The notes under the pieces are model-generated. The model was not told where the DNA came from, ran no database searches, and saw nothing but the letters and a program-made list of their open reading frames with translations. This document shows positions 18,545 through 57,403 of a stretch of 64,000 bases of DNA, piece by piece (within the stretch, counting starts at the first letter, position 1; every line of letters starts with the position of its first letter). A program made the position numbers and the translations under genes. The stretch comes from Antedon mediterranea (Eukaryota; Animalia; Echinodermata), in contig NC_092676.1 in NCBI RefSeq assembly GCF_964355755.1, positions 1,121,788 to 1,185,787 of the forward strand. The letters run 5' to 3'.

Positions 18545-18674
18545 TTAAGACAAATAAAAATATTTAAAAAAATACTATATTGGGTGAAAATTCTATTAAA
18601 ATGCATTTACTTACAATTCACCAATGTAACTTGTAGCATTCACATGCAAAGGAGGCTCAGGTATCTTAATGTAC

Positions 18675-21600
18675 GCTTGTGTCAAGCTAGCCAACAATAA
18701 GCCAGCCAACAATAAGCCAGCCCACTTTTATTTTTTCCAGCCAACAATAACTATGAAACGCCGTTTGTGCATTCTTTACATTTTCATTGTTACTTATGGC
18801 TTTTATGGTATTAGGAATTAAATATTTGTGAGAAAAACGGCGGATTGTTCCTGGGATTCACTTGGTGGGATTATACTAGGGTACCCCCTTAGTCGTCCAG
18901 TATAAGTTAGAGTGGGACCACTGGTCCCGTTTACTCAGCCCTCATCTTTAAAATTTGAGTGTAACTCAATTACGATTTTTAAAATATAGTTAAATTTGAA
19001 ACTGTATTTGTGAGAAAATGGCGGATTGTTCCTGGGAGTCACTTGGTGGGATTATACTAGGGTACCCCCTTAGTCGTTCAGTATAAGTTAGAGTGCGACC
19101 ACTGGTTCCGTTTACTCAGCCCTCATCTTTTAAATTTGAGTGTAACTCAATTACGATAAAATTTTTAAAATATAGTGAAAATTGATACTGTATTTGTGAG
19201 AAAATGGCGGATTGTTCCTGGGATTCACTTGGTGGGATTATATTAGGGTACCCCATTAGTCGTCCAGTATAAGTTAGAGTGCGACCACTGGTCCCGTTTA
19301 CTCAGCCCTCATCTTTAACGTTTGAGTGTAACTCAATTACGATTAATATTTTAAAATATAGTGAAAATTGATACTGTATTTGTGAGAAAATGGCGGATTG
19401 TTCCTTGGAGTCACTTGGTGGGATTATACTAGGGTACCTCCTTAGTTGTCCAGTATAAGTTAGAGTGGGACCACTGGTCCCGTTTACTCAGCCCTCATCT
19501 TTAACGTTTGAGTGTAACTCAATTACGATTAATATTTTAAAATATAGTGAAATTTGATACTGTATTTGTGAGAAAATGGCGGATTGTTCCTGGGAGTCAC
19601 TTGGTGGGATTATACTAGGTTACCCCCTTAGTCGTCCAGTATAAGTTAGAGTGGGACCACTGGTCCCGTTTACTCAGCCCTCATCTTTAACGTTTGAGTG
19701 TAACTCAATTACGATTAATATTTTAAAATATAGTGAAATTTGATACTGTATTTGTGAGAAAATGGCGGATTGTTCCTGGGAGTCACTTGGTGGGATTATA
19801 CTAGGTTACCCCCTTAGTCGTCCAGTATAAGTTAGAGTGGGACCACTGGTCCGGTTTACTCAGCACTCATCTTTAACATTTGAGTGTAACTCATTTACGA
19901 TTTTTAAAATATAGTGAAATTTGATACTGTATTTGTGAAAAAATGGCGGATTGTTCCTGGGAGTCACTTGGTGGGATTATACTAGGGTACCCCCTTAGTC
20001 GTCCAGTATAAGTTAGAGTGGGACCACTGGTCTCATTTACTCAGCCCTCATCTTTAAAATTTGAGTGTAACTCATTTACAATTTTTAAAATATAGTGAAA
20101 TTTGAAACTGTATTTGTGAGAAAACGGCGGATTGTTCCTGAGAGTCACTTGGTGGGATTATACTAGGGTACCTTCTTAGTCGTACAGTATAAGTTAGAGT
20201 GGGACCACTGGTACTGTTTACTCAGCCCTCATCTTTTAAATTTGAGTGTAACTCATTTACGATTAAAAAAATATAGTGAAATTTGATACTGTATTTGTGA
20301 GAAAATGGCGGATTGTTCCTGGGAGTCACTTGGTGGGATTATACTAGGTTACCCCCTTAGTCGTCCAGTATAAGTTAGAGTGGGACCACTGGTCCGGTTT
20401 ACTCAGCCCTCATCTTTAAAATTTGAGTGTAACTCATTTACGATTTTTAAAATATAGTTAAATTTGATACTGTATTTGTGAGAAAATGGAGGATTGTTCC
20501 TGGGAGTCACTTGGTGGGATTATACTAGGGTACCTCCTTAGTTGTCCAGTATAAGTTAGAGTGGGACCACTGGTCCCGTTTACTCAGCCCTCATCTTTAA
20601 CGTTTGAGTGTAACTCAATTACGATTAATATTTTAAAATAAAGTGAAATTTGATACTGTATTTGTGAGAAAATGGCGGATTGTTCCTGGGAGTCACTTGG
20701 TGGGATTATACTAGGTTACCCCTTTAGTCGTCCAGTATAAGTTAGAGTGGGACCACTGGTCCGGTTTACTCAGCCCTCATCTTTAAAATTTGAGTGTAAC
20801 TCATTTACGATTTTTAAAATATAGTGAAATTTGATACTGTATTTGTGAGAAAATGGCGGATTGTTCCTGGGAGTCACTTGGTGGGATTATACTAGGGTAC
20901 CTCCTTAGTTGTCCAGTATAAGTTAGAGTGGGACCACTGGTCCCGTTTACTCAGCCCTCATCTTTAACGTTTGAGTGTAACTCAATTACGATTAATATTT
21001 TAAAATATAGTGAAATTTGATACTGTATTTGTGAGAAAATGGCGGATTGTTCCTGGGAGTCACTTGGTGGGATTATACTAGGTTACCCCCTTAGTCGTCC
21101 AGTATAAGTTAGAGTGGGACCACTGGTCCGGTTTACTCAGCCCTCATCTTTAACATTTGAGTGTAACTCATTTACGATTTTTAAAATATAGTGAAATTTG
21201 ATACTGTATTTGTGAAAAAATGGCGGATTGTTCCTCCTGGGAGTCACTTGGTGGGATTATACTAGGGTACCCCCTTAGTCGTCCAGTATAAGTTAGAGTG
21301 GGACCACTGGTCCCATTTACTCAGCCCTCATCTTTATAATTTGAGTGTAACTCATTTACAATTTTTAAAATATAGTGAAATTTGAAACTGTATTTGTGAG
21401 AAAACGGCGGATTGTTCCTGAGAGTCACTTGGTGGGATTATACTAGGGTACGTCCTTAGTCGTCCAGTATAAGTTAGAGTGGGACCACTGGTCCGGTTTA
21501 CTCAGCCCTCATCTTTAAAATTTGAGTGTAACTCATTTACGATTTTTAAAATATAGTGAAATTTGATACTGTATTTGTGAGAAAATGGCGGATTGTTCCT

Positions 21601-24600
21601 GGGAGTCACTTGGTGGGATTATACTAGGGTACCTCCTTAGTCGTACAGTATAAGTTAGAGTGGGACCACTGGTACTGTTTACTCAGCCCTCATCTTTTAA
21701 ATTTGAGTGTAACTCATTTACGATTAAAAAAATATAGTGAAATTTGATACTGTATTTGTGAGAAAATGGCGGATTGTTCCTGGGAGTCACTTGGTGGGAT
21801 TATACTAGGTTACCCCCTTAGTCGTCCAGTATAAGTTAGAGTGGGACCACTGGTCCGGTTTACTCAGCCCTCATCTTTAAAATTTGAGTGTAACTCATTT
21901 ACGATTTTTAAAATATAGGGAAATTTGATACTGTATTTTTGAGAAAATGGCGGATTGTTCCTGGGAGTCACTTGGTGGGATTATACTAGGGTACCTCCTT
22001 AGTTGTCCAGTATAAGTTAGAGTGGGACCACTGGTCCCGTTTACTCAGCCCTCATCTTTAACATTTGAGTGTAACTCAATTACGATTAATATTTTAAAAT
22101 ATAGTGAAATTTGATACTGTATTTGTGAGAAAATGGCGGATTGTTCCTGGGAGTCACTTGGTGGGATTATACTAGGTTACCCCCTTAGTCGTCCAGTATA
22201 AGTTAGAGTGGGACCACTGGTCCGGTTTACTCAGCCCTCATCTTTAAAATTTGAGTGTAACTCATTTACGATTTTTAAAATATAGTGAAATTTGATACTG
22301 TATTTGTGAAAAAATGGCGGATTGTTCCTGGGAGTCACTTGGTGGGATTATACTAGGGTACCTCCTTAGTCGTCCAGTATAAGTTAGAGTAGGACCACTG
22401 GTCCCGTTTACTCAGCCCTCATCTTTAAAATTTGAGTGTAACTCATTTACGATTTTTAAAATATAGTGAAATTTGAAACTGTATTTGTGAGAAAACGGCG
22501 GATTGTTCCTGAGAGTCACTTGGTGGGATTATACTAGGGTACCTCCTTAGTCGTACAGTATAAGTTAGAGTGGGACCACTGGTACTGTTTACTCAGCCCT
22601 CATCTTTTAAATTTGAGTGTAACTCATTTACGATTAAAAAAATATAGTGAAATTTGATACTGTATTTGTGAGAAAATGGCGGATTGTTCCTGGGAGTCAC
22701 TTTGTGGGATTATACTAGGGTACCTCCTTAGTTGTCCAGTAGAAGTTAGAGTGGGACCACTGGTCCCGTTTACTCAGCCCTCATCTTTAACGTTTGAGTG
22801 TAACTCAATTACGATTAATATTTTAAAATATAGTGAAATTTGATACTGTATTTGTGAGAAAACGGCGGATTGTTCCTCGGAGTCACATGGTGGGGTTATA
22901 CTAAGGTACGTCCTTAGTCGTCCAGTATAAGTTAGAGTGCGACCACTGGTCCCGTTTACTCAGCCCTCATCTTTTAATTTGCGTGTAACTCAATTACGAT
23001 AAAATTTTATAAATATAGTGAAAATTGATACTGTATTTGTGAGAAAATGGCGGATTGTTCCTGGGAGTCACTTGGTGGGATTATACTAGGGTACCTCCTC
23101 AGTTGTCCAGTATAAGTTAGAGTGGGACCACTGGTCCCGTTTACTCAGCCCTCATCTTTAACGTTTGAGTGTAACTCAATTACGATTAATATTTTAAAAT
23201 ATAGTGAAATTTGATACTGTATTTGTGAGAAAATGGCGGATTGTTCCTGGGAGTCACTTAGTGGGATTATACTAGGTTACCCCCTTAGTCGTCCAGTATC
23301 AGTTAGAGTGGGACCACTGGTCCGGTTTACTCAGCCCTCATCTTTAACGTTTGAGTGTAACTCAATTACGATTAATATTTTAAAATATAGTGAAATTTGA
23401 TACTGTATTTGTGAGAAAACAGCGGATTGTTCCTGAGAGTCACTTGGTGGGATTATACTACGGTGCCTCCCTAGTCGTCCAGTATAAGTTAGAGTGGGAC
23501 CACTGGTCCCGTTTACTAAGCCCTCATTTTTTAAATTTGAGTGTAACTCATTTACGATTTTAAAAATATAGTGAAATTAGATACTGTATTTGTAAGAAAA
23601 CGGCGGATTGTTCCTCGGAGTCACATGGTGGGGTTATACTAAGGTACGTCCTTAGTCGTCCAGTATAAGTTAGAGTGAGACCACTGGTCCCGTTTACTCA
23701 GCCCTCATCTTTTAAATTTGAGTGTAACTCAATTACGATAAAATTTTTAAAATATAGTGAAATTTGATACTGTATTTGTGAGAAAATGGCGGATTGTTCC
23801 TGGGAGTCACTTGGTGGGATTATACTAGGGTACCCTCTTAGTTGTCCAGTATAAGTTAGAGTGGGACTACTGGTCCCGTTTACTCAGCCCTCATCTTTCA
23901 AATTTGAGTGTAACTCATTTACGATTTTTAAAATATAGTGAAATTTGAAACTGTATTTGTGAGAAAACGGCGGATTGTTCCTGAGAGTCACTTGGTGGGA
24001 TTATACTAGGGTACACCCTTAGTCGTCCAGTATAAGTTAGAGTGGGACCACTGGTCCCGTTTACTCAGCCCTCATCTTTAAAATTTGAGTGTAACTCATT
24101 TACGATTTTTAAAATATAGTGAAATTTGATACTGTATTTGTGAGAAAACGGCGTATTGTTCCTGAGAGTCACTTGGTGGGATTATACTAGAGTACCTCTT
24201 TAGTCATCCTGTATAAGTTAGAGTGGGACCACTGGTCCCGTTTACTCAGCCCTCTTCTTTAACATTTGAGTGTAACTCAATTACGATTAATATTTTAAAA
24301 TATAGTGAAATTTGATACTGTATTTGTGTAAAAATGGCGGATTGTTCCTGGGAGTCACTTGGTGGGATTATACTAGGTTACCCCCTTAGTCGTCCAGTAT
24401 AAGTTAGAGTGGGACCACTGGTCCGGTTTACTCAGCCCTCATCTTTAAAATTTGAGTGTAACTCATTTACGATTTTTAAAATATAGTGAAATTTGATACT
24501 GTATTTGTGAAAAATGGCGGATTGTTCCTGGGAGTCACTTGGTGGGATTATACTAGGGTACCCCCTTAGTCGTCCAGTATAAGTTAGAGTGGGACCACTA

Positions 24601-27600
24601 GTCCCGTTTACTCAGCCCTCATCTTTAAAATTTGAGTGTAACTCATTTACGATTTTTAAAATATAGTGAAATTTGAAACTGTATTTGTGAGAAAACGGCG
24701 GATTGTTCCTAAGAGTCACTTGGTGGGATTATACTAGGGTACCTCCTTAGTCGTACAGTATAAGTTAGAGTGGGACCACTGGTACTGTTTACTCAGCCCT
24801 CATCTTTTAAATTTGAGTGTAACTCATTTACGATTAAAAAAATATAGTGAAATTTGATACTGTATTTGTGAGAAAATGGCGGATTGTTCCTGGGAGTCAC
24901 TTGGTGGGATTATACTAGGGTACCTCCTTAGTTGTCCAGTATAAATTAGAGTAGGACCACTGGTCCCGTTTACTCAGCCCTCATCTTTAAAATTTGAGTT
25001 TAACTCATTTATGATCTTTAAAATATAGTGAAATGTGAAACTGTATTTGTGAGAAAACGGCGGATTGTTCCTGAGAGTCACTTGGTGGGATTATACTAGG
25101 GTACCTCCTTAGTTGTCCAGTATAAGTTAGAGTGGGACTACTGGTCCCGTTTACTCAGCCCTCATCTTTAACATTTGAGTGTAACTCAATTACGATTTTA
25201 AAAATATAGTGAAATTAGATACTGTATTTGTGAGAAAACGGCGGATTGTTCCTGGGAGTCACATGGTGGGATTATACTAAGGTACGTCCTTAGTTGTCCA
25301 GTATAAGTTAGAGTGCGACCACTGGTTTCGTTTACTCAGCCCTCATCTTTTAAATTTGAGTGTAACTCAATTACGATAAAAAATTTTAAAATATAGTGAA
25401 AATTGATACTGTATTTGTGAGAAAATGGCGGATTGTTCCTGGGAGTCACTTTGTGGGATTATACTAGGGTACCTCCTTAGTTGTCCAGTAGAAGTTAGAG
25501 TGGGACCACTGGTCCCGTTTACTCAGCCCTCATCTTTAACGTTTGAGTGTAACTCAATTACGATTAATATTTCAAAATATAGTGAAATTTGATACTGTAT
25601 TTGTGAGAAAACGGCGGATTGTTCCTCGGAGTCACATGGTGGGGTTCTACTAGGGTACGTCCTTAGTCGTCCAGTATAAGTTAGAGTGCGACCACTGGTC
25701 CCGTTTACTCAGCCCTCATCTTTTAATTTGAGTGTAACTCAATTACGATAACATTTTTAAAATATAGTGAAAATTGATACTGTATTTATGAGAAAATGGC
25801 GGATTGTTCCTGGGAGTCACTTGGTGGGATTATACTAGGGTACCTCCTCAGTTATCCAGTATAAGTTAGAGTGGGACCACTGGTCCCGTTTACTCAGCCC
25901 TCATCTTTAACGTTTGAGTGTAACTCAATTACGATTAATATTTTAAAATATAGTGAAATTTGATACTGTATTTGTGAGAAAATGGCGGATTGTTCCTGGG
26001 AGTCACTTAGTGGGATTATACTAGGTTACCCCCTTAGTCGTCCAGTATCAGTTAGAGTGGGACCACTGGTCCGGTTTACTCAGCCCTCATCTTTAACGTT
26101 TGAGTGTAACTCAATTACGATTAATATTTTAAAATATAGTGAAATTTGATACTGTATTTGTGAGAAAACGGCGGATTGTTCCTGAGAGTCACTTGGTGGG
26201 ATTATACTACGGTGCCTCCCTAGTCGTCCAGTATAAGTTAGAGTGGGACCACTGGTCCCGTTTACTAAGTCCTCATCTTTTAAATTTGAGTGTAACTCAT
26301 TTACGATTTTAAAAATATAGTGAACTTTGATACTGTATTTGTAAGAAAACGGCGGATTGTTCCTCGGAGTCACATGGTGGGGTTATACTAAGGTACGTCC
26401 TTAGTCGTCCAGTATAAGTTAGAGTGCGACCACTGGTCCCGTTTACTCAGCCCTCATCTTTTAAATTTGAGTGTAACTCAATTACGATAAAATTTTTAAA
26501 ATATAGTGAAATTTGATACTGTATTTGTGAGAAAATGGCGGATTGTTCCTGGGAGTCACTTGGTGGGATTATACTAAGGTACCCTCTTAGTTGTCCAGTA
26601 TAAGTTAGAGTGGGACCACTGGTCCCGTTTACTCAGCCCTCATCTTTAAAATTTGAGTGTAACTCATTTACGATTTTTAAAATATAGTGAAATTTGAAAC
26701 TGTATTTGTGAGAAAACGGCGGATTGTTCCTGAGAGTCACTTGGTGGGATTATACTAGGGTACACCCTTAGTCGTCCAGTATAAGTTAGAGTGGGACCAC
26801 TGGTCCCGTTTACTCAGCCCTCATCTTTAAAATTTGAGTGTAACTCATTTACGATTTTTAAAATATAGTGAAATTTGATACTGTATTTGTGAGAAAACGG
26901 CGTATTGTTCCTGAGAGTCACTTGGTGGGATTATACTAGAGTACCTCTTTAGTCATCCTGTATGAGTTAGAGTGGGACCACTGGTCCCGTTTACTCAGCC
27001 CTCATCTTTAAAATATTAATCGTAATTGAGTTACACTCAAATTTTAAAGATAAGGGCTGAGTAAACGGGACCAGTGGTCCCACTCTAACTTAAACTGGAC
27101 AACTAAGGAGGTACGCTATTATAATCCCACCAAGTGACTCTCGGGAACAATCCGCCATTTTCTCACAAATACAGTATCAAATTTCACTATATTTTAAAAT
27201 ATTAATCGTAATTGAGTTACACTCAAACGTTAAAGATGAGGGCTGAGTAAACGGGACCAGTGGTCCAACTCTAACTTCTACTGGAGAACTAAGGAGGTAC
27301 CCTAGTATAATCCCACCAAGTGACTCCTAGGAACAATCCGCCATTTTCTCACAAATACAGTATCAATTTTCACTATATTTTAAATTTTTTTACCGTAATT
27401 GAGTTACACTCAAATTTAAAAGATGAGGGCTGAGTAAATGGAACCAGTGGTCGCACTCTAACTTATACTGGACGACTAAGGACGTACCTTAGTATAATCC
27501 CACCATGTGACTCCCAGGAACAATCCGCCGTTTTCTCACAAATACAGTATCTAATTTCACTATATTTTTAAAATCGTAAATGAGTTACACTCAAATTTAA

Positions 27601-30600
27601 AAGATGAGGGCTGAGTAAACAAGACAAGTGGTCCCACTCTAACTTATACTGGACGACTAAGGATGCACCCTAGTATAATCCCACCAAGTGACTCTCAGGA
27701 ACAATCCGCCGTTTTCTCACAAATACAGTATCAAATTTCACTATATTTTAAAAATCGTAAATGAGTTACACTCAAATTTAAAAGATGAGGGCTGAGTAAA
27801 CGGGACCAGTGGTCCCACTCTAACTTATACTGGACGACTAAGGGGGTACCCTAGTATAATCCCACCAAGTGACTCTCAGGAACAATCCGCCGTTTTCTCA
27901 CAAATACAGTATCAAATTTCACTATATTTTAAAAATCGTAAATGAGTTACACTCAAATTTTAAAGATGAGGGCTGAGTAAACGGGACCAGTGGTCCCACT
28001 CTAACTTATACTGGACAACTAAAGAGGTACCCTAGTATAATCCCACCAAGTGACTCCCATGAACAATCCGCCATTTTCTCACAAATACAGTATCAAATTT
28101 CACTATATTTTTTAAATCGTAAATGAGTTACATTCATATTTAAAAGATGAGGGCTGAGTAAACGGGACCAGTGGTCCCACTCTAACTTCTACTGGACAAC
28201 TAAGGAGGTACCCTAGTATAATCCCACCAAGTGACTCCCAGGAACAATCCGCCATTTTCTCACAAATACAGTATCAATTTTCACTATATTTTAAATTTTT
28301 TTTACCGTAATTGAGTTACACTCAAATTTAAAAGATGAGGGCTGAGTAAACGGAACCAGTGGTCGCACTCTAACTTATACTGGACGGCTAAGGACGTACC
28401 TTAGTATAATCCCACCATGTGACTCCCAGGAACAATCCGCCGTTTTCTCACAAATACAGTATCTAATTTCACTATATTTTTTAAATCGTAAATGAGTTAC
28501 ATTCATATTTAAAAGATGAAGGCTGAGTAAACGGGACCAGTGGTCCCACTCTAACTTCTACTGGACAACTAAGGAGGTACCCTAGTATAATCCCACCAAG
28601 TGACTCCCAGGAACAATCCGCCATTTTCTCACAAATACAGTATCAATTTTCACTATATTTTAAAATTTTTTTACCGTAATTGAGTTACACTCAAATTTAA
28701 AAGATGAGGACTGAGTAAACGGAACCAGTGGTCGCACTCTAACTTATACTGGACGACTAAGGACGTACCTTAGTATAATCCCACCATGTGACTCCCAGGA
28801 ACAATCCGCCGTTTTCTCACAAATACAGTATCTAATTTCACTATATTTTTAAAATCGTAAATGAGTTACACTCAAATTTAAAAGATGAGGGCTGAGTAAA
28901 CGGGACCAGTGGTCCCACTCTAACTTATACTCGACGACTAAGGATGCACCCTAGTATAATCCCACCAAGTGACTCCCATGAACAATCCGCCATTTTCTCA
29001 CAAATACAGTATCAAATTTCACTATATTTTTTAAATCGTAAATGAGTTACATTCATATTTAAAAGATGAGGGCTGAGTAAACGGGACCAGTGGTCCCACT
29101 CTAACTTCTACTGGACAACTAAGGAGGTACCCTAGTATAATCCCACCAAGTGACTCCCAGGAACAATCCGCCATTTTCTCACAAATACAGTGTCAATTTT
29201 CACTATATTTTAAAATTTTTTTACCGTAATTGAGTTACACTCAAATTTAAAAGATGAGGGCTGAGTAAACGGAACCAGTGGTCGCACTCTAACTTATACT
29301 GGACGGCTAAGGACGTACCTTAGTATAATCTCACCATGTGACTCCCAGGAACAATCCGCCGTTTTCTCACAAATACAGTATCTAATTTCACTATATTTTT
29401 TAAATCGTAAATGAGTTACATTCATATTTAAAAGATGAAGGCTGAGTAAACGGGACCAGTGGTCCCACTCTAACTTCTACTGGACAACTAAGGAGGTACC
29501 CTAGTATAATCCCACCAAGTGACTCCCAGGAACAATCCGCCATTTTCTCACAAATACAGTATCAATTTTCACTATATTTTAAAATTTTTTTACCGTAATT
29601 GAGTTACACTCAAATTTAAAAGATGAGGACTGAGTAAACGGAACCAGTGGTCGCACTCTAACTTATACTGGACGACTAAGGACGTACCTTAGTATAATCC
29701 CACCATGTGACTCCCAGGAACAATCCGCCATTTTCTCACAAATACAGTATCAAATTTCACTATATTTTTTAAATCGTAAATGAGTTACATTCATATTTAA
29801 AAGATGAGGGCTGAGTAAACGGGACCAGTGGTCCCACTCTAACTTCTACTGGACAACTAAGGAGGTACCCTAGTATAATCCCACCAAGTGACTCCTAGGA
29901 ACAATCCGCCATTTTCTCACAAATACAGTATCAATTTTCACTATATTTTAAATTTTTTTACCGTAATTGAGTTACACTCAAATTTAAAAGATGAGGGCTG
30001 AGTAAATGGAACCAGTGGTCGCACTCTAACTTATACTGGACGACTAAGGACGTACCTTAGTATAATCCCACCATGTGACTCCCAGGAACAATCGGCCGTT
30101 TTCTCACAAATACAGTATCTAATTTCACTATATTTTTAAAATCGTAAATGAGTTACACTCAAATTTAAAAGATGAGGGCTGAGTAAACAGGACAAGTGGT
30201 CCCACTCTAACTTATACTGGACGACTAAGGATGCACCCTAGTATAATCCCACCAAGTGACTCTCAGGAACAATCCGCCGTTTTCTCACAAATACAGTATC
30301 AAATTTCACTATATTTTAAAAATCGTAAATGAGTTACACTCAAATTTAAAAGATGAGGGCTGAGTAAACGGGACCAGTGGTCCCACTCTAACTTATACTG
30401 GACGACTAAGGGGGTACCCTAGTATAATCCCACCAAGTGACTCTCAGGAACAATCCGCCGTTTTCTCACAAATACAGTATCAAATTTCACTATATTTTAA
30501 AAATCGTAAATGAGTTACACTCAAATTTTAAAGATGAGGGCTGAGTAAACGGGACCAGTGGTCCCACTCTAACTTATACTGGACAACTAAGGAGGTACCC

Positions 30601-33600: not shown

Positions 33601-33721
33601 AAGTAACAATGAAAATGTAAAGAATGCACAAACGGCGTTTCATAGTTATTGTTGGCTGGAAAAAATAAAAGTGGGCTGGCTTATTGTTGGCTGGCTTATT
33701 GTTGGCTAGCTTGACACAAGC
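18675..33721. mobile_element. Giant foldback element, copy 1 (15.0 kb): satellite-filled inverted arms, no spacer
   Basis: ~148-bp unique TIR starting gcttgtgtcaagctagccaacaataag; ~45 forward monomers, strand switch at ~27007-27014, ~36 reverse monomers; flanks ttaatgtac / caaatgtac (7/9). Confidence 0.9.
18823..33573. repeat. 181-187-bp satellite in head-to-head orientation
   Basis: Monomer gagaaaatggcggattgttcctgggagtcacttggtgggattatactagggtacc...gggaccactggtccc...ttgagtgtaactca...tatagtgaaatttgatactgtatttgt. Confidence 0.97.
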
Positions 33722-33999
33722 CAAATGTACAGCATATACATGTTACAGCAGAGCACCTGCACAAATTCACTCCCAGGCCTCCTAACGCCTGTAAAACTGG
33801 TTTTTCCTGGTTTTATAAATAAACTCTGGCAGGGCCTGATCTGGCAAAATCGACAAAGGTTACGCCTGCTACTACTACTTGATTGAATTCTATTAAAATA
33901 AACGTGTATATATTAATGTACATAACAGGTAATATTGAGGTTTGCTTCTAATCTATAACTTTCAAAAACCAAAATGTATGTATTTACCCCAAAAATAAA

Positions 34000-34235
34000 G
34001 TGAATTCCTTCTCTACTACCTGATCGTCGAAGGATAATCTTTTCTTTAAAGCAAGCGAGCTGAGCAGCCTCTTGGTGGCGTTTGAGCACGTATTCATATT
34101 CATGATTCCATGGTTTGATTGGTTACTACATTTTCGCAAAAGTTATTACACACTGTTCATGTTCCGCCATTTTTCGCGGAAACTTCTGCAGGCTGCGCAA
34201 GATTATTTTTGCACCCTCTTTAAATTTGATTGGTA
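34000..34235. promoter_or_regulatory. Candidate (bidirectional) promoter and non-coding first exon of ATG5
   Basis: Relatively CpG-rich; reverse CCAAT box (gattgg ~34117); YY1-like ccgccatttt (~34164); plus-strand donor ttg|gtaaat (~34232); minus-strand donor CAG|gtagta at 34020/34019. Confidence 0.4.
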
Positions 34236-34715
34236 AATATATGCTGTTACTGTTACCTTTATTACTAATTAAGTTAATGCAATACTGTAGCCAGGATGAT
34301 TGTTGTAGAATCTGGGCTATGTATGGATTCTAGGCCGTATTAAATGCCACTCACTGTGCATGCACTGAACTAAACTGTCCCGTAATATTTGCTTGATTGC
34401 ACGTCCCGGTAATCCCATTATGTAGGCCTAGCTTTATAATTTTTTTATATAAGGTTTGATGAATACAAAAAGTAAACCAATGTTTCATTAGTTTGGTTAG
34501 AGTTAAAGGTTAGTTAGATTAGTCTATAGGATACTAATTTATTATGTATTCCCTTTATTTATACTGGGTGGCGGTGTATTAAAAATAATATCCTTGTTTG
34601 ATTCTTTTTTAATGATATGATGTACCACTAACTGACTGTACTCTCTCTGTATCTGTGTTTATAGTATATGATGATGTGTTCTTTTGTTTATGTTTCTCAG
34701 TGTTACAGTTATATA

Positions 34716-38615
<3,900 letters not shown>

Positions 38616-39989: not shown

Positions 39990-40245
39990 ACACGTGCCCG
40001 TCGCCTTCAAAAAATCTCCTTTCCATTCCGACTAACACTAAAACATATGGCTTAAGCACCTTCACTTCTGCTGCCTCTTGCTTATGGAATTACCTACCCG
40101 CCTCTATTAGATCATGTTCGTCTACTATCGCCTTTAAATCTGCCTTGAAAACTCATCTTTTTCATCAGATTGAGTTCTCTCATACACCGCGCCTTTGATC
40201 ACTTACTGCTGGAATTGTTGCGTTATAAATTTGTATTATTATTAT
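39990..40245 (+). mobile_element. L2/CR1-type LINE 3' end fragment
   Basis: TKTYGLSTFTSAASCLWNYLPASIRSCSSTIAFKSALKTHLF, followed by a short 3' UTR and (att)n tail. Confidence 0.75.
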
Positions 40246-40366
40246 AAAATCAAACAAGGAAGGCAAACAAATTACTCTTTTACAAATTGTAAGTGTGTAT
40301 TAATAATCTCTTTTATTAAATATAGTTCGCAAAATCTCTCCCTAAAGTTGTACGGAAAATGTTTCT

Positions 40367-46098
<5,732 letters not shown>

Positions 46099-46299
46099 AG
46101 TTTGAATGTTTTCTTTATAGAATTAGGCCTATCGTTACTTTCAAGATTTTGTTTTGATTTTGTGTGTTGTGTTTTGTGTGCTGCTAGCTGCATGTCGGTC
46201 GCGTTTTGTGAAACAAAACGCGTTAAGTTTGGACAATTTGTCTGCTGCCCTCAATTTAAGTTGCTTATTAGAATAACAAAACAATACAACGCAAGTGTG

Positions 46300-49200
46300 G
46301 CTTGTGTCAAGCTAGCCAACAATAAGCCAGCCAACAATAAGCCAGCCCACTTTTATTTTTTCCAGCCAACAATAACTATGAAACGCCGTTTGTGCATTCT
46401 TTACATTTTCATTGTTACTTATGGCTTTTATGGTATTAGGAATTAAATATTTGTGAGAAAAACGGCGGATTGTTCCTGGGATTCACTAGGTGGGATTATA
46501 CTAGGGTACCCCCTTAGTCGTCCAGTATAAGTTAGAATGGGACCAATGGTGCCGTTTACTCAGCCCTCATCTTTAAAATTTGAGTGTAACTCAATTACAA
46601 TTTTTAAAATATAGTTATATTTGAAACTGTATTTGTGAGAAAATGGCGGATTGTTCCTGGGAGTCACTTGGTGGGATTATACTAGGGTACCCCCTTAGTC
46701 GTCCAGTATAAGTTAGAGTGCGACCACTGGTCCCGTTTACTAAGCCCTCATCTTTAAAATTTGAGTGTAACTCAATTACAATTTTTAAAATATAGTTAAA
46801 TTTGAAACTGTATTGGTGAGAAAATGGCGGATTGTTCCTGGGAGTCACTTGGTGGGATTATACTAGGGTACCTCCTTAGTCGTACACTATAAGTTAGAGT
46901 GGGACCACTGGTACCGTTTTTACACAGCCCTCATCTTTTAAATTTGAGTGTAACTCATTTACGATTAAAAAAATATAGTGAAATTTGATACTGTATTTGT
47001 GAGAAAATGGCGGATTGTTCCTGGGAGTCACTTGGTGGGATTATACTAGGGTACCTCCTTAGTTGTCCAGTATAAGTTAGAGTGGGACCACTGGTTCCGT
47101 TTACTCAGCCCTCATCTTTAACATTTGAGTGTAACTCATTTACGACTTTAAAATATAGTGAAATTTGATACTGTATTTGTGAGAAAACGGCGGATTGTTC
47201 CTGAGAGTCACTTGGTGGGATTATACTAGGGTGCCTCCTTAGTCGTCCAGTATAAGTTAGAGTGGGACCACTGGTCCCGTTTACTCAGCCCTCATCTTTT
47301 AAATTTAAGTGTAACTCATTTACGATTTTAAAAATATAGTGAAATTAGATACTGTATTTTTGTGAGAAAACGGCGGATTGTTCCTGGGAGTCACATGGTG
47401 GCATTATACTAAGGTACGTCCTTAGTCGTCCAGTATAAGTTAGAGTGCGACCACTGGTTCCGTTTACTCAGCCCTCATCTTTTAAATTTGAGTGTAACTC
47501 AATTACGGTAAAAAAAGTTAAAATATAGTGAAAATTGATACTGTATTTGTGAGAAAATGGCGGATTGTTCCTTGGAGTCACTTGGTGGGATTATACTAGG
47601 GTACGTCCTTAGTTATCCAGTAGAAGTTAGAGTGGGACCACTGGTCCCGTTTACCCAGCCCTCATCTTTAACGTTTGAGTGTAACTCAATTACGATTAAT
47701 ATTTTAAAATATAGTGAAATTTGATACTGTATTTGTGAGAAAATGGCGGATTGTTCCCGAGAGTCACTTGGTGGGATTATACTAGGGTACCTCCTTAGTT
47801 GTCCAGTTTAAGTTAGAGTGGGACCACTGTTCCCGTTTACTCAGCCCTTATCTTTAAAATTTGAGTGTAACTCATTTACGATTAATATTTTAAAATATAG
47901 TGAAATTTGATACTGTATTTGTGAGAAAATGGCGGATTGTTCCTGAAAGCCACTTGGTGGGATTATACTAGGGTACCCCCTTAGTTGTGCAGTATAAGTT
48001 AGAGTGGGACCACTGGTCCCGTTTACTCAGCCCTCATCTTTAAAATTTGAGTGTAACTCATTTACGATTTTTAAAATATAGTAAAATTTGAAACTGTATT
48101 TGTGAGAAAACGGCGGATTGTTCCTGGGAGTCACATTGTGGCATTATACTAAGGTACGTCCTTAGTCGTCCAGTATAAGTTAGAGTGCGACCACTGGTTC
48201 CGTTTACTCAGCCCTCATCTTTTAAATTTGAGTGTAACTCAATTACGGTAAAAAATTTTAAAATATAGTGAAAATTGATACTGTATTTGTGAGAAAATGG
48301 CGGATTGTTCCTTGGAGTCACTTGGTGGGATTATACTAGGGTACCTCCTTAGTTGTCCAGTAGAGGTTAGAGTGGGACCACTGGTCCCGTTTACTCAGCC
48401 CTCATCTTTAACGTTTGAGTGTAACTCAATTACGATTAATATTTTAAAATATAGTGAAATTTCATACTGTATTTGTGAGAAAATGGCGGATTGTTCCTGG
48501 GAGCCACTTGGTGGGATTATACTAGGGTACCCCCTTAGTTGTGCAGTATAAGTTAGAGTGGGACCACTGGTCCCGTTTACTCAGCCCTCATCTTTAAAAT
48601 TTGAATGTAACTCATTTACGATTTTTAAAATATAGTAAAATTTGAAACTGTATTTGTGAGAAAACGGCGGATTGTTCCTGAGAGTCACTTGGTGGGATTA
48701 TACTAGGGTACCTCCTTAGTTGTCCAGTATAAGTTAGAGTGGGACCACTGGTCCCGTTTACTCAGCCCTCATCTTTAAAATTTGAGTGTAACTCATTTAC
48801 GATTTTTAAAATATAGTGAAATTTGATACTGTATTTGTGAGAAAACGGCGGATTGTTCCTTGGAGTCACTTGGTGGGATTATACTAGGGTACCTCCTTAG
48901 TTATCCAGTAGAAGTTAGAGTGGGACCACTGGTCCCGTTTACCCAGCCCTCATCTTTAACGTTTGAGTGTAACTCAATTACGATTAATATTTTAAAATAT
49001 AGTGAAATTTGATACTGTATTTGTGAGAAAATGGCGGATTGTTCCCGAGAGTCACTTGGTGGGATTATACTAGGGTACCTCCTTAGTTGTCCAGTTTAAG
49101 TTAGAGTGGGACCACTGTTCCCGTTTACTCAGCCCTTATCTTTAAAGTTTGAGTGTAACTCATTTACGATTAATATTTTAAAATATAGTGAAATTTGATA

Positions 49201-52200
49201 CTGTATTTGTGAGAAAATGGCGGATTGTTCCTGAGAGCCACTTGGTGGGATTATACTAGGGTACCCCCTTAGTTGTGCAGTATAAGTTAGAGTGGGACCA
49301 CTGGTCCCGTTTACTCAGCCCTCATCTTTAAAATTTGAGTGTAACTCATTTACGATTTTTAAAATATAGTAAAATTTGAAACTGTATTTGTGAGAAAACG
49401 GCGGATTGTTCCTGGGAGTCACATTGTGGCATTATACTAAGGTACGTCCTTAGTCGTCCAGTATAAGTTAGAGTGCGACCACTGGTTCCGTTTACTCAGC
49501 CCTCATCTTTTAAATTTGAGTGTAACTCAATTACGGTAAAAAATTTTAAAATATAGTGAAAATTGATACTGTATTTGTGAGAAAATGGCGGATTGTTCCT
49601 TGGAGTCACTTGGTGGGATTATACTAGGGTACCTCCTTAGTTGTCCAGTAGAGGTTAGAGTGGGACCACTGGTCCCGTTTACTCAGCCCTCATCTTTAAC
49701 GTTTGAGTGTAACTCAATTACGATTAATATTTTAAAATATAGTGAAATTTCATACTGTATTTGTGAGAAAATGGCGGATTGTTCCTGGGAGCCACTTGGT
49801 GGGATTATACTAGGGTACCCCCTTAGTTGTGCAGTATAAGTTAGAGTGGGACCACTGGTCCCGTTTACTCAGCCCTCATCTTTAAAATTTGAATGTAACT
49901 CATTTACGATTTTTAAAATATAGTAAAATTTGAAACTGTATTTGTGAGAAAACGGCGGATTGTTCCTGAGAGTCACTTGGTGGGATTATACTAGGGTACC
50001 TCCTTAGTTGTCCAGTATAAGTTAGAGTGGGACCACTGGTCCCGTTTACTCAGCCCTCATCTTTAAAATTTGAGTGTAACTCATTTACGATTTTTAAAAT
50101 ATAGTGAAATTTGATACTGTATTTGTGAGAAAACGGCGGATTGTTCCTGAAAGTCACTTGGTGGGATTATACTAGGGTACCCCCTTAGTCGTCCAGTATA
50201 AGTTAGAGTGGGACCACTGGTCCCGTTTACTGAGCCCTCATCTTTTAAATTTGAGTGTAACTCAATTACGGTAAAAAAATTTAAAATATAGTGAAAATTG
50301 ATACTGTATTTGTGAGAAAATGGCGGATTGTTCCTTGGAGTCACTTGGTGGGATTATACTAGGGTACCTCCTTAGTTGTCCAGTAGAAGTTAGAGTGGGA
50401 CCACTGGTCCCGTTTACCCAGCCCTCATCTTTAACGTTTGAGTGTAACTCAATTACGATTAATATTTTAAAATATAGTGAAATTTGATACTGTATTTGTG
50501 AGAAAATGGCGGATTGTTCCCGAGAGTCACTTGGTGGGATTATACTAGGGTACCTCCTTAGTTGTCCAGTTTAAGTTAGAGTGGGACCACTGTTCCCGTT
50601 TACTCAGCCCTTATCTTTAAAATTTGAGTGTAACTCATTTACGATTAATATTTTAAAATATAGTGAAATTTGATACTGTATTTGTGAGAAAATGGCGGAT
50701 TGTTCCTGAGAGCCACTTGGTGGGATTATACTAGGGTACCCCCTTAGTTGTGCAGTATAAGTTAGAGTGGGACCACTGGTCCCGTTTACTCAGCCCTCAT
50801 CTTTAAAATTTGAGTGTAACTCATTTACGATTTTTAAAATATAGTAAAATTTGAAACTGTATTTGTGAAAAAACGGCGGATTGTTCCTGGGAGTCACATT
50901 GTGGCATTATACTAAGGTACGTCCTTAGTCGTCCAGTATAAGTTAGAGTGCGACCACTGGTTCCGTTTACTCAGCCCTCATCTTTTAAATTTGAGTGTAA
51001 CTCAATTACGGTAAAAAAATTTAAAATATAGTGAAAATTGATACTGTATTTGTGAGAAAATGGCGGATTGTTCCTTGGAGTCACTTGGTGGGATTATACT
51101 AGGGTACCTCCTTAGTTGTCCAGTAAAGGTTAGAGTGGGACCACTGGTCCCGTTTACTCAGCCCTCATCTTTAACGTTTGAGTGTAACTCAATTACGATT
51201 AATATTTTAAAATATAGTGAAATTTCATACTGTATTTGTGAGAAAATGGCGGATTGTTCCTGGGAGCCACTTGGTGGGATTATACTAGGGTACCCCCTTA
51301 GTTGTGCAGTATAAGTTAGAGTGGGACCACTGGTCCCGTTTACTCAGCCCTCATCTTTAAAATTTGAATGTAACTCATTTACGATTTTTAAAATTTAGTA
51401 AAATTTGAAACTATATTTGTGAGAAAACGGCGGATTGTTCCTGAGAGTCACTTGGTGGGATTATACTAGGGTACCTCCTTAGTTGTCCAGTATAAGTTAG
51501 AGTGGGACCACTGGTCCCGTTTACTCAGCCCTCATCTTTAAAATTTGAGTGTAACTCATTTACGATTTTTAAAATATAGTAAAATTTGATACTGTATTTG
51601 TGAGAAAACGGCGGATTGTTCCTGAAAGTCACTTGGTGGGATTATACTAGGGTACCCCCTTAGTCGTCCAGTATAAGTTAGAGTGGGACCACTGGTCCCG
51701 TTTACTGAGCCCTCATCTTTTAAATTTGAGTGTAACTCATTTACGATTTTTAAAATATAGTAAAATTTGATACTGTATTTGTGAGAAAATGGCAGATTGT
51801 TCCTGGGAGCCACTTGGTGGGATTATACTAGCGTACCTCCTTAGTTGTCCAGTTTAAGTTAGAGTGGGACCACTGGTCCCGTTTACTCAACCCTTATCTT
51901 AAAAATTTGAGTGTAACTCAATTACGAATAATATTTTAAAATATAGTGAAATTTGATACTGTATTTGTGAGAAAATGGCGGATTGTTCCTGGGAGTCACT
52001 TGGTGGGATTATACTAGGGTACCCCCTTAGTCGTCCAGTATAAGTTAGAGTGCGACCAATGGTCCCGTTTACTCAGCCCTCATCTTTAAAATTTGAGTGT
52101 AACTCATTTACGATTTTTAAAATATAGTGAATTTTGAAACTGTATTTGTGAGAAAACGGCGGATTGTTCCTGAGATTCACTTGGTGGGATTATACTAGGG

Positions 52201-55200
52201 TACACCCTTAGTCGTCCAGTGTAAGTTATAGTGGAACCACTGGTCCCGTTTACTCAGCCCTCATCTTTAAAATTTGAGTGTGACTCATTTACGATTTAAA
52301 AAATATAGTGAAATTTGATACTTTATTTGTGAGAATCTGGCGGATTGTTCCTGGGAGTCACTTGGTGGGATTATACTAGGGTACCTCCTTAGTTGTCCAG
52401 TATAAGTTAGAGTGGGACCACTGGTCCCGTTTACTCAGCCCTCATCTTTAAAATTTGAGTGTAACTCATTTACGATTTTTAAAATATAGTGAAATTTGAT
52501 ACTGTATTTGTGAGAAAACGGCGGATTGTTCCTGAGAGTCACTTGGTGGGATTATACTAAAGTACCTCCTTAGTTGTCCAGTATAAGTTAGAGTTGGACC
52601 ACTGGTCCCGTTTACTCAGCCCTCATCTTTAAAATTTGAGTGTAACACATTTACGATTTTTAAAATATAGTGAAATTTGAAACTGTATTTGTGAAAAAAC
52701 GGCGGATTGTTCCTGAGAGTCACTTGGTGGGATTATACTAGGGTACCTCCTTGTTCGTCCAGTAAAGGTTAGAGTGGGACCACTGGTTCCGTTTACTCAG
52801 CCCTCATCTTTAAAATTTGAGTGTAACTCATTTACGATTTTTAAAATATAGTAAAATTTGAAACTGTATTTGTGAGAAAACGGCGGATTGTTCCTGGGAG
52901 TCACATTGTGGCATTATACTAAGGTACGTCCTTAGTCGTCCAGTATAAGTTAGAGTGCGACCACTGGTTCCGTTTACTCAGCCCTCATCTTTTAAATTTG
53001 AGTGTAACTCATTTACGATTTTTAAAATATAGTGAAATTTGTACCAGTGGTCCCACTCTAAACTATATTTTTAAAATCGTAAATGAGTTACACTCAAATT
53101 TTAAAGATGAGGGCTGAGTAAACGGGACCAGTGGTCCCACTCTAACTTATACTGGACGACTAAGGGGGTACCCTAGTATAATCCCACCAAGTGACTCCCA
53201 GGAACAATTCGCCATTTTCTCACAAATACAGTATCAATTTTCACTATATTTTAAAATGTTTATCGTAATTGAGTTACACTTAAATTAAAAGATGAGGGCT
53301 GAGTAAACGGAACCAGTGGTACCACTATAACTTTTACTGGACGACTAAGGAGGTACCCTAGTATAATCCCACCAAGTGACTCCCCGGAACAATCCGCCAT
53401 TTTCTCACAAATACAGTTTCAAATTTAACTATATTTTAAAAATTGTAATTGAGTTACACTCAAATTTTTAAGATGAGAAGGCTGAGTAAACGGAACCAGT
53501 GGTCCCACTCTAACTTATACTGGACAACTAAGGAGGTACCCTAGTATAATCCCACCAAGTGACTCCCAGGAACAATCCGCCATTTTCTCACAAATACAGT
53601 ATCAAATGTCACTATATTTTTTAAATCGTAAATGAGTTACACTCGAATTTAAAAGATGAGGGCTGAGTAAACGGGACCAGTGGTCCCACTCTAATTTATA
53701 CTGGACGACTAAGGAGGTACCTTAGTATAATCCCACCAAGTGACTCCCAGGAACAATCCGCCATTTTTTCACAAATACAGTATCAAATTTCACTATATTT
53801 TTTAAATCGTAAATGAGTTACACTCAAATTTAAAAGATGAGGGCTGAGTAAACGGTACCAGTGGTCCCACTCTAACTTATACTGTACGACTAAGGAGGCA
53901 CCCTAGTATAATCCCACCAAGTGACTGCCAGGAACAATCCGCCATTTTCTCACAAATACAGTATCAAATTTCACTATATTTTAAAATATTAATCGTAATT
54001 GAGTTACACTCAAATTTTAAAGATAAGTGCTGAGTAAACGGGACCAGTGGTCCCACTCTAACTTAAACTGGACAACTAAGGAGGTACCCTAGTATAATCC
54101 CCCACCAAGTGACTCCCGGGAACAATCCGCCATTTTCTCACAAATACAGTATCAAATTTCACTATATTTTAAAATATTAATCGTAATTGAGTTACACTCA
54201 AACGTTAAAGATGAGGGCTGAGTAAACGGAACCAGTGGTCCCACTCTAACTTCTACTGGACAACTAAGTAGGTACCCTAGTATAATCCCACCAAGTGACT
54301 CCCAGGAACAATCCGCCATTTTCTCACAAATACAGTATCAATTTTCACTATATTTTAAATATTTTTATCGTAATTGAGTTACACTCAAATTTAAAAGATG
54401 AGGGCTGAGTAAACGGGACCAGTGGTCGCACTCTAACTTATACTGGACGACTAAGGACGTACCTTAGTATAATCCCACCATGTGACTCCCAGGAAAAATC
54501 CGCCGTTTTCTCACAAATACAGTATCTAATTTCTCTATATTTTTAAAATCGTAAATGAGTTACACTCAAATTTATAAGATGAGGGCTGAGTAAACGGGAC
54601 CAGTGGTCCCACTCTAACTTATATTGGACGACTAAGGAGGCACCCTAGTATAATCCCACAAAGTGACTCTCAGGAACAATCCGCCGTTTTCTCACAAATA
54701 CAGTATCAAATTTCACTATATTTTAAAAGTCGTAAATGAGTTACACTCAAATTTAAAAGATGAGGGCTGAGTAAACGGGACCAGTGGTACCACTCTAACT
54801 TTTACTGGACGACTAAGGAGGTACCCTAGTATAATCCCACCAAGTGACTCTCAGGAACAATCCGCCGTTTTCTCACAAATACAGTATCAAATTTCACTAT
54901 ATTTTAAAAATCGTAAATGAGTTACACTCAAATTTTAAAGATTAGTGCTGAGTTAACGGGACCAGTGGTCCCACTCTAACTTATACTGGACAACTAAGGA
55001 GGTACTCTAGTATAATCCCACCAAGTGACTCCCAGGAACAATCCGCCATTTTCTCACAAATACAGTATCAAATTTCACTATATTTTTTAAATCGTAAATG
55101 AGTTACACTCAAATTTAAAAGATGAGGGCTGAGTAAACGGTACAAGTGGTCCCACTCTAACTTATACTGTACGACTAAGGAGGCACCCTAGTATAATCCC

Positions 55201-57403
55201 ACCAAGTGAATCTCAGGAACAATCCGCCGTTTTCTCCCTCACAACTACAGTTTCAAATTTCACTATATTTTAAAAATCGTAAATGAGTTACACTCAAATT
55301 TTAAAGATGAGGGCTGAGTAAACGGAAACAGTGGTCCCACTCTAACTTATACTGGACGACTAACGGGGTACCCTAGTATAATCCCACCAAGTGACTGCCA
55401 GGAACAATCCGCCATTTTCTCACAAATACAGTATCAAATTTCACTATATTTTAAAATATTAATCGTAATTGAGTTACACTCAAATTTTAAAGATAAGGGC
55501 TGAGTAAACGGGACCAGTGGTCCCACTCTAACTTAAACTGGACAACTAAGGAGGTACCCTAGTATAATCCCACCAAGTGACTCCCGGGAACAATCCGCCA
55601 TTTTCTCACAAATACAGTATCAAATTTCACTATATTTTAAAATATTAATCGTAATTGAGTTACACTCAAACGTTAAAGATGAGGGCTGAGTAAACGGGAC
55701 CAGTGGTCCCACTCTAACTTCTACTGGACAACTAAGGAGGTACCCTAGTATAATCCCACCAAGTGACTCCCAGGAACAATCCGCCATTTTCTCACAAATA
55801 CAGTATCAATTTTCACTATATTTTAAATATTTTTATCGTAATTGAGTTACACTCAAATTTAAAAGATGAGGGCTGAGTAAACGGAACCAGTGGTCCCACT
55901 CTAACTTATACTGGACAACTAAGGACGTACCTTAGTATAATCCCACCATGTGACTCCCAGGAAAAATCCGCCGTTTTCTCACAAATACAGTATCTAATTT
56001 CTCTATATTTTAAAAATCGTAAATGAGTTACACTCAAATTTAAAAGATGAGGGCTGAGTAAACGGGACCAGTGGTCCCACTCTAACTTATACTGGACGAC
56101 TAAGGAGGCACCCTAGTATAATCCCACCAAGTGACTCTCAGGAACAATCCGCCGTTTTCTCACAAATACAGTATCAAATTTCACTATATTTTAAAAATCG
56201 TAAATGAGTTACACTCAAATTTAAAAGATGAGGGCTGAGTAAACGGGACCAGTGATCCCACTCTAACTTATACTGGATGACTAATGGGGTACCCTAGTAT
56301 AATCCCACCAAGTGACTCTAAGGAACAATCCGCCGTTTTCTCACAAATACAGTATCAAATTTCACTATATTTTAAAAATCGTAAATGAGTTACACTCAAA
56401 TTTTAAAGATGAGGGCTGAGTAAACGGGACCAGTGGTCCCACTCTAACTTATACTGGACAACTAAGAAGGTACCCTAGTATAATCCCACAAAGTGACTCC
56501 CGGGAACAATCCGCCATTTTCTCACAAATACAGTATCAAATTTCACTATATTTTTTAAATCGTAAATGAGTTACACTCAAATTTAAAAGATGAGGGCTGA
56601 GTAAACGGTACCAGTGGTCCCACTCTAACTTATACTGTACGACTAAGGAGGTACCCTAGTATAATCCCACCAAGTGACTCCCAGGAACAATCCGCCATTT
56701 TCTCACCAATACAGTTTCAAATTTTACTATATTTAAAAAATTGTAATTGAGTTACACTCAAATTTTAAAGATGAGGGCTGAGTAAACGGGACCAGTGGTC
56801 GCACTCTAACTTATACTGGACGTCTAAGGGGGTACCCTAGTATAATCCCACCAAGTGACTCCCAGGAACAATCCGCCATTTTCTCACAAATACAGTTTCA
56901 AATTTAACTATATTTAAAAAATTGTAATTGAGTTACACTCAAATTTTAAAAATGAGGGCTGAGTAAACGGGACCAGTGGTCGCACTCTAACTTATACTGG
57001 ACGTCTAAGGGGGTACCCTAGTATAATCCCACCAAGTGACTCCCAGCAACAATCCGCCATTTTCTCACAAATACAGTTTCAAATTTAACTATATTTTAAA
57101 AATCGTAATTGAGTTACACTCAAATTTTAAAGATGAGGGCTGAGTAAACGGGACCAGTGGTCCCACTCTAACTTATACTGGACGACTAAGGGGGTACCCT
57201 AGTATAATCCCACCAAGTGAATCCCAGGAACAATCCGCCGTTTTTCTCACAAATATTTAATTCCTAATACCATAAAAGCCATAAGTAACAATGAAAATGT
57301 AAAGAATGCACAAACGGCGTTTCATAGTTATTGTTGGCTGGAAAAAATAAAAGTGGGCTGGCTTATTGTTGGCTGGCTTATTGTTGGCTAGCTTGACACA
57401 AGC
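46300..57403. mobile_element. Giant foldback element, copy 2 (11.1 kb)
   Basis: Same TIR as copy 1; perfect 9-bp TSD GCAAGTGTG (46291-46299, 57404-57412); ~36 forward monomers, switch at ~53041-53062, ~23 reverse monomers. Confidence 0.93.

Follow-up and report, generated by a model that had tools for sequence, protein, structure and literature searches.

A stretch of 64,000 nucleotides from the crinoid Antedon mediterranea (contig NC_092676.1, positions 1,121,788 to 1,185,787; hereafter the window) contains two large repetitive elements, E1 (18675-33721, 15,047 bp) and E2 (46300-57403, 11,104 bp), each with genes on both sides (Table 1; positions are counted from the first base of the window). 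Both are built as a pair of inverted arms that consist of satellite monomers and end in the same terminus, and it is close to certain that they are foldback-type transposons.

Table 1. Features of E1, E2 and their surroundings (TIR stands for terminal inverted repeat and TSD for target-site duplication)
Feature	Position	Strand	Remarks
NLR gene (DED-DED-NACHT), left of E1	219..16115	-	start codon 16115, pointing away from E1
E1 left target-site copy	18666..18674	+	TTAATGTAC
E1 left outer TIR domain	18675..18822	+	148 bp; predicted transposase-binding region, by analogy with Muta1 (PMC5499845)
E1 left arm array	18823..27014	+	45 monomers (last partial); private block duplication at offset 15
E1 centre	27007..27014	.	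direct arm join at 8-bp microhomology TTTAAAAT
E1 right arm array	27015..33573	-	36 monomers; arm-specific duplications offset by 6, 5 and 14 monomers
E1 right outer TIR domain	33574..33721	-	identical 148 bp
E1 right target-site copy	33722..33730	+	CAAATGTAC; two terminus-adjacent bases differ; same letters in contig 1 of sequencing run X3
ATG5, right of E1	34066..35814, continues beyond	+	spliced 5' exon 34066-34231, start codon 34716; Pfam 34.7-35.8 kb
Spliced coding gene, left of E2	44679..46098	-	spliced contig of run X8, exons from ~46100 to 44679; start codon 46098
E2 left TSD	46291..46299	+	GCAAGTGTG
E2 left outer TIR domain	46300..46447	+	identical 148 bp
E2 left arm array	46448..53041	+	36 monomers; private 7/8/15-monomer offset duplications
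E2 centre	53042..53061	.	20-bp piece copied from a reverse-strand monomer, between the arms
E2 right arm array	53062..57255	-	23 monomers
E2 right outer TIR domain	57256..57403	-	identical 148 bp
E2 right TSD	57404..57412	+	GCAAGTGTG
Furin/PCSK-type S8 peptidase, first coding exon, right of E2	57880..58146	+	signal peptide and pro-domain (Pfam S8 pro-domain, 57.9 kb); start codon 57880

When the 148-bp terminus (query 18675-18822) was compared with the window by BLAST, exactly four matches were obtained, all identical at 148/148 positions, and they form two inward-facing pairs: 18675-18822 (+) with 33721-33574 (-), and 46300-46447 (+) with 57403-57256 (-). Tandem Repeats Finder (TRF) places a 181-bp array directly against each terminus. 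In E1 the arrays cover 18823-27014 (44.7 copies) and, on the opposite strand, 27018-33573 (35.9 copies); in E2 they cover 46448-53041 (36.0 copies) and, on the opposite strand, 53062-57255 (22.9 copies), so that the strand flips near 27016 and near 53050, respectively. Splitting of the arrays by cutting at a fixed anchor gave 140 monomers (45 + 36 in E1, 36 + 23 in E2), the four innermost being partial; the 136 full-length monomers are 180-188 bp long and have a mean pairwise identity of about 92.7%. The part between the outer domains makes up 98% of E1 and 97% of E2, and the arms of these intact copies measure 4.3-8.3 kb. The longest stop-free stretch over six frames was 100 codons in E1 and 102 codons in E2, which leaves no coding middle. 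Neither the terminus nor the monomer was found elsewhere in the window (best E 0.059), Rfam gave 0 matches over 18500-19400 at E up to 0.1, and exact-pattern scans of metagenome contigs, collections not expected to contain the host, gave 0 matches with either. The original prediction, made from the sequence alone, had described two elements with four identical termini of ~148 bp, tens of monomers per arm, an abrupt flip of strand and no coding middle, and BLAST and TRF agree with it on each of these points. The identity of the termini extends further than was described, however: counted from the terminus inward, perfect identity runs over 188-356 bp depending on the pair.

The outer 148 bp opens with a 13-bp terminal palindrome (18675-18687 at the left end of E1), followed by three exact 12-bp subterminal repeats at 18689-18700, 18704-18715 and 18739-18750, two of them at 15-bp spacing. 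Two short palindromes occur in the monomer itself, intact in 68/140 and 122/140 copies. In addition, 77 of the 140 monomers (e.g. 18823-19004) contain AAAATGGCGG, which is presumably a YY1-like motif (predicted only) and is found once outside the elements; many motifs could match by chance.

E2 is flanked on both sides by the same nine bases (9/9), and the two flanks of E1 agree at 7 of 9 positions. Given the composition of the flanks, a 9/9 match would arise by chance with a probability of about 1e-5, and one of 7/9 or better with 2.6e-3. A perfect 9-bp TSD at E2 and a 7/9 match at E1 had both been predicted, and the flank comparison bears them out; the left copy at E1 likely represents the original target. 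These repeats also bear on the possibility that each element is a chimera of two insertions or satellite blocks that were joined by ectopic recombination or inversion. The left end of E1 is indeed closer to the right end of E2, with which it has the longest perfect identity (356 bp), than to its own partner (272 bp), and chimeric copies of the Drosophila element Galileo with non-matching flanks are known (PMC3573991). Chimeras should have unrelated flanks, however, and here the target repeats match and contigs of other samples fit simple empty sites (see below). Therefore, we regard a chimeric origin as very unlikely.

The centres of the two elements differ. The arms of E2 are joined at other monomer positions than those of E1, and an exact 21-mer, made of the E2 central piece and a single base beside it, is found again at 53855 and 56608. 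In both elements an unpaired central loop of 26-28 nt separates stems in which, over 1 kb, about 93% of positions pair; the longest perfect stem in this 1 kb next to the centre is 82 bp in E1 and 43 bp in E2. The two different scars suggest two separate joining events, of the kind that repair would leave once an element has been excised or the centre of a palindrome has broken. The predicted term 'spacerless' is thus right as regards a coding middle, and its precise form is the short unpaired loop. The predicted 'imperfect palindrome' applies to the repeat family but not monomer by monomer, since left and right monomers of the same rank differ by a mean of 12.6 (E1) and 14.5 (E2) changes, compared with 13.3 for random pairs. 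An artefact of assembly or library, in which long reads fold back through a satellite array or arrays are mis-joined, has to be considered at this point. Foldback artefacts in long reads exist (10.1101/2025.07.15.664946), and both elements are known from the assembly; the exact array lengths could be off. On the other hand, fold-back reads should give exact mirrors, whereas the arms are not mirror copies, carry different internal duplications and meet at different centres; mirror-image arms were rejected for these reasons. Besides, the flanks are unique, carry matching target repeats and act as one locus in other individuals, and contig 1 of run X3, from a haplotype different from that of the window, crosses the right junction of E1, although with just 26 nt on the terminus side, where the rule applied asks for 31 nt. 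An artefact is therefore hardly credible.

The history of the arms was read from the monomers. The nearest relative of a monomer lies in the same arm in 101/136 cases and in another arm in 26, with 9 ties; in 1000 shuffles of the labels the corresponding mean was 25 and the maximum 46. Identical pairs of monomers fall within one arm in 19/20 cases. Every arm has private, very young block duplications that differ by 0.3-1.1% (3-9 differences per 0.5-1.5 kb), for example monomers 2-7 versus 8-13 in the right arm of E1 (3 differences in ~1.1 kb) and monomers 7-13 versus 14-20 in the left arm of E2 (4 differences in ~1.3 kb). No two arms are collinear; matches between arms are runs of only 3-6 monomers with 2-6 differences each. 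The right arm of E1 and both arms of E2 have a common order of about 10 monomer types, with 2-6 differences per matching monomer, and the left arm of E1 is more distinct. Together with the perfect identity at the ends, these data indicate that the outer domain is more conserved than the arrays and that the growth of the arms is younger than their separation. Because the young duplications are private and no arms are collinear, part or all of the growth may have followed insertion, and the predicted notion that each insertion 'delivers' 60-80 monomers is not demonstrated.

To look at the same sites in other samples, contigs of six sequencing runs (among 11 covering part of 44300-47300) were aligned to two stretches of the window that were picked to be free of long arrays, four runs per stretch. 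Runs X1 and X8 belong to organism A, X5 to organism B and X11 to organism C; X1 may be the window's own sample. At the E2 site, where the flank in organism B is about 97% alike, contig 20 of organism B (1633 nt) matches the left flank up to 46300 and continues with 621 nt unlike the terminus. The base that stands at 46300 also comes directly behind the right TSD of E2, and 46300 is the point at which an empty site would stop matching. At the E1 site, contig 24 of X8, which comes from another study and whose haplotype has several alleles in common with organism B, aligns from 33724, where the two target copies of E1 begin to agree, and runs on for 98 nt unlike the terminus. A splice donor was rejected as the cause of this departure, because the adjacent bases are not GT on the minus strand. 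Contig 10 of X5 aligns from 33725 with 13 loose nt and also fits an empty E1 site. Apparently, then, the E1 site is empty in another individual of organism A, and both sites are empty in organism B. Empty sites in other haplotypes, which the original prediction had named as a check, are thus fitted by contigs at both loci, as inferred from where the alignments end.

The terminus also borders, with an unchanged boundary, on at least three further flanks. Two of these were seen in X8, and one, itself repeated (depth 1003 in X6 versus about 27), in X5/X6. Of the predicted recently active, non-autonomous family, recent insertion at several loci is upheld by the missing E1 in the X8 contig and by these other flanks, and jumping at full size is not demonstrated. 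A separate observation is a loose end before 46415 in X1 and X8, which represents a diverged family copy. Its terminal palindrome is similar, but some 100 bp of the outer domain, the 12-bp repeats among them, are missing; this shorter copy, present in two organism-A samples, is probably an older, immobile insertion.

The depth ratio of monomer to terminus (one terminus bin against two monomer bins), of which only the order of magnitude counts, was 36-47 in X1, 25-26 in X8, 1.0-1.8 in X5 and 1.3-2.1 in X11; the window itself has 35 monomers per terminus. Relative to the single-copy flank, the depth of the termini was roughly 70-230 in X1 and 170-460 in X5. Since X11 covers no single-copy flank, organism C could not be placed. 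On this rough measure, long arms look typical of the species, its relatives look to have more ends with 1-2 monomers each, and the growth of the arms looks lineage-specific. The high monomer depth in X8 was not taken as transcription, because carry-over of DNA from a high-copy repeat gives the same picture. Seeding of free satellite arrays by the transposon, as had been proposed, is not demonstrated here: the X1 ratio of 36-47 is near what the arms alone give (35), although the single-position ratio in X1 (74-130) leaves room for extra arrays, and no free-standing head-to-tail array occurs in the window outside E1 and E2.

It is possible, though we think it rather doubtful, that the elements jumped as small foldbacks with 1-10 monomers per arm, that the arms grew to 23-45 monomers only after insertion and that the giants are immobile. 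This would agree with the young duplications, all of them private to one arm, with the short and diverged matches between arms that are nowhere collinear, and with the ~1-2 monomers per terminus in organisms B and C. However, 4/4 arms are long, in agreement with the depth ratio across the species, which would require each arm to have grown on its own, and E1 is so young that a contig of another individual lacks it. We lean, by a little, towards copies that insert with multi-kb arms.

Among known foldback elements, the sea-urchin TU and Drosophila FB elements have much shorter arms and short repeat units. Both show the foldback design with long repetitive inverted arms, TU in an echinoderm, and both are named in PMC4079207. 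E1 and E2 have the traits of the class, namely long TIRs with internal tandem repeats (the 12-bp repeats plus 23-45 monomers per arm), a target-site duplication (9/9 at E2, 7/9 at E1) and dispersal over several loci (two here and at least three other flanks) with contigs that fit empty sites. A middle domain between the arms, a variable trait of foldbacks, is replaced by the 26-28-nt loop; its absence does not exclude the class, because copies of Galileo that consist of two TIRs only are known (PMC3573991). Galileo also resembles E1 and E2 in its long, internally repetitive TIRs of variable length, but it belongs to the P superfamily, has a 7-bp TSD and has TIRs of 0.3-1.2 kb (PMC3573991).

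The closest designs are found in Tribolium. There, Rehavkus-type elements (the TfSat06 element, Rehavkus-3_TC and Rehavkus-1_TC) likewise combine a TIR with a variable number of satellite monomers (140-170 bp). Arrays of TfSat06 form inverted termini sometimes >11 kb long within Rehavkus-like elements (PMC12581902; 10.1101/2024.12.02.626372; PMC10218199), and repeat number is species-specific: in Rehavkus-3_TC it is 6-8 in one Tribolium species but can reach 50 in the sibling species (PMC12581902). Transposition was proposed as the means by which these repeats spread (PMC12581902), and the TSD of Rehavkus is 9 bp (PMC6446971). The Tribolium elements keep a central part, however, according to the legends of Fig. 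S14 and S16 (PMC12581902), while E1 and E2 have only the loop and an echinoderm host; the likeness is one of described design, not of sequence comparison with Repbase entries. Tetris of Drosophila virilis is similarly a non-autonomous foldback with an outer unique domain followed by tandem repeats (~220 bp), with 8-10-bp TSDs, with a repeat number that varies between alleles and with expansion in one species against short arrays in its sister (PMC4079207), and it gave rise to the idea of foldbacks as sources of satellites (PMC4079207). It differs in that its TIRs, of at most 1,735 bp, include inner and middle domains, and its long arrays are largely apart from complete elements. Muta1 of Aedes aegypti, a type-2 foldback Mutator-like element (MULE), resembles the outer domain in having a TIR of 145 bp, a palindromic motif at the very end and 12-bp subterminal repeats, spaced at ~15 bp, which bind the transposase and raise excision (PMC5499845). 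Its TSD is 8-9 bp, and 80% of its reinsertions in yeast fell in gene-rich regions (PMC5225508, PMC5499845). Muta1 is 3.2 kb long and autonomous, with nine subterminal repeats and no 181-bp array; this likeness too is one of design only. The novelty that had been claimed, on the premise that described arms are usually far shorter, was overstated in view of the Tribolium arms >11 kb (PMC12581902) and the TIR-only Galileo copies (PMC3573991). The general idea of satellite-armed foldbacks is already in print for beetles and flies, and E1 and E2 are an extreme case, in which very long arms occur without a middle. A search that did not extend to Repbase, Dfam and most subscription journals turned up no publication on the present crinoid family, and none of the Antedon titles listed concerned its repeats.

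Which enzyme moved the elements can be judged from the TSD length and the end design only; neither has a coding part that could show the DDE domain of a MULE, the PHD finger of a Rehavkus transposase or the THAP domain of a P transposase. TSDs of MULEs are 8-11 bp and those of Rehavkus 9 bp, and MULEs tend to insert near genes (PMC6446971); the duplication is 9 bp at E2 and imperfect at E1, at two sites only. A TIR with variable subterminal tandem repeats and a 9-bp TSD are the traits by which Rehavkus is defined (PMC12581902, PMC6446971), whereas its hosts as given in Table 1 of PMC6446971, from few elements, are arthropods and annelids and the present host is a crinoid. An enzyme of the MULE/Rehavkus type is thus the probable class, by analogy. 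Alternatively, the same non-autonomous foldback might owe its movement to an enzyme of another kind, such as one of the P superfamily (Galileo-like) or a hAT transposase. In favour of this are Galileo, with its 7-bp TSDs, its copies made of TIRs only and its long TIRs with internal repeats (PMC3573991), and the seven bases in common between the flanks of E1. But the E2 duplication is exactly 9 bp, and the seven bases of E1, offset by two on the right, fit a damaged 9-mer better than a clean 7-mer. A clean 7-bp TSD, as in the P superfamily, was rejected on the same grounds, and we consider a non-MULE enzyme unlikely.

Taken together, E1 and E2 are in our judgement two insertions of one foldback-type family, and probably cut-and-paste elements that depend on a Mutator/Rehavkus-type transposase acting in trans. 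We suppose that this enzyme binds the terminal palindrome together with the 12-bp repeats, and such binding may explain why the outer 148 bp stay identical while the arrays drift. Loss of the middle, possibly a transposase gene, likely occurred on two or more occasions during the repair of breaks, with the arms joined at a microhomology in E1 and through a templated piece in E2. In this species the arms likely developed from an ancestral form of 1-2 monomers, like that of organisms B and C, and grew at first to the ~10 monomer types common to three of the arms and later to 23-45 monomers; this later growth presumably took place inside the individual arms, through gap repair or out-of-register recombination. 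Since long arms look typical genome-wide, copies probably had multi-kb arms already at insertion, and each arm would have kept changing afterwards. Insertion likely favours open promoter DNA.

Several points weigh against this reading. First, the target repeat of E1 is just 7/9, and no TSD is readable at the other flanks that abut the terminus. Secondly, with no arms collinear, no sister copy of a giant element is seen, and neither a transposase nor an autonomous copy was seen in the window and the aligned contigs, a search that was not genome-wide. Thirdly, the foldback shape does not fix the superfamily, Galileo having the same shape with a P-type enzyme (PMC3169594, PMC3573991). The empty sites are inferred from where the X5 and X8 alignments stop and not from the run-on letters, and two sites cannot establish a preference for promoters. 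Finally, single-position ratios of monomer to terminus differ from those given above (74-130 in X1, 14-25 in X8, 0.8-1.1 in X5 and 2.0-3.2 in X11), summed contig depths are not copy numbers, monomers <85% alike were left out and X1 is possibly the window's own sample; for these reasons the ratios are read as orders of magnitude.

In line with the predicted insertion into gene-rich DNA, both copies adjoin genes. At both sites (2/2, too few to establish an insertion bias) the neighbouring genes are divergent and point away from the element. To the left of E1, the NACHT exon (2065-4710) matches a protein labelled Antedon mediterranea with 100% identity, the next relatives being from crinoids, and this protein maps to exons from 11818 down with its start codon at 16115. 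The first exon of ATG5, on the right, takes its start at 34066 from an X8 contig. A weak spliced X8 contig (33724-34070, minus strand, intron 33890-33987), whose second exon crosses the E1 insertion point, is possibly an NLR 5' leader or an upstream antisense RNA, which E1 would interrupt. The start codon of the gene left of E2 is 201 bp from the insertion; we take this gene to resemble CCDC174, and a Pfam search of three of its exons gave no family. The start codons that flank E2 are 11,782 bp apart now and would be ~670 bp apart in an empty site.

Other repeats were noted in and around these genes. A 737-bp element at 16528-17264 in the NLR 5' region, with TTAA on both sides and short inverted ends, is presumably a non-autonomous piggyBac-type insertion. 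At 368-2548 (minus-strand open reading frame 219-2129), six tandem 357-bp (119-codon) repeats in open frame continue the C-terminal region of the NLR; their frame overlaps the end of the NACHT exon through a frame change, and the annotated NLR protein stops at ~2068. An NLR intron contains a reverse-transcriptase fragment at 8124-9143 (Pfam RVT_1, E 5.7e-29), and the first coding intron contains 58 copies of a 62-bp tandem repeat (12255-15855), preceded by 9 copies of a 26-bp repeat. An intron of ATG5 contains, from ~34948 onward, the edge of another very high-copy repeat, whose flanks are many and various in all four runs, and further intronic or intergenic minisatellites are found at 36372-36832 (28 bp), 41250-42260 (68 bp) and 42356-43756 (24-32 bp).

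These results extend satellite-armed foldbacks to crinoids, in a form with no middle, 4-8-kb arms and intact ends. It may be, although we hold this only tentatively, that since the split from a close relative a small foldback family became 11-15-kb all-satellite hairpins that jump full-size into bidirectional promoters, with transposase breaks and repair rewriting and lengthening the arms at each jump; the transposon itself would then be the satellite amplifier, and its segregating alleles would separate divergent genes by 11-15 kb. Per terminus, this species appears to have 20-40 times as many monomers as the close relative, and this contrast offers a two-genome test of whether the arms grow and travel or grow after landing. 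E1 appears to segregate, so that effects on ATG5, the NLR and the furin-type gene would be testable between alleles, and near-spacerless palindromes of >10 kb, 93% paired, persist next to essential genes.

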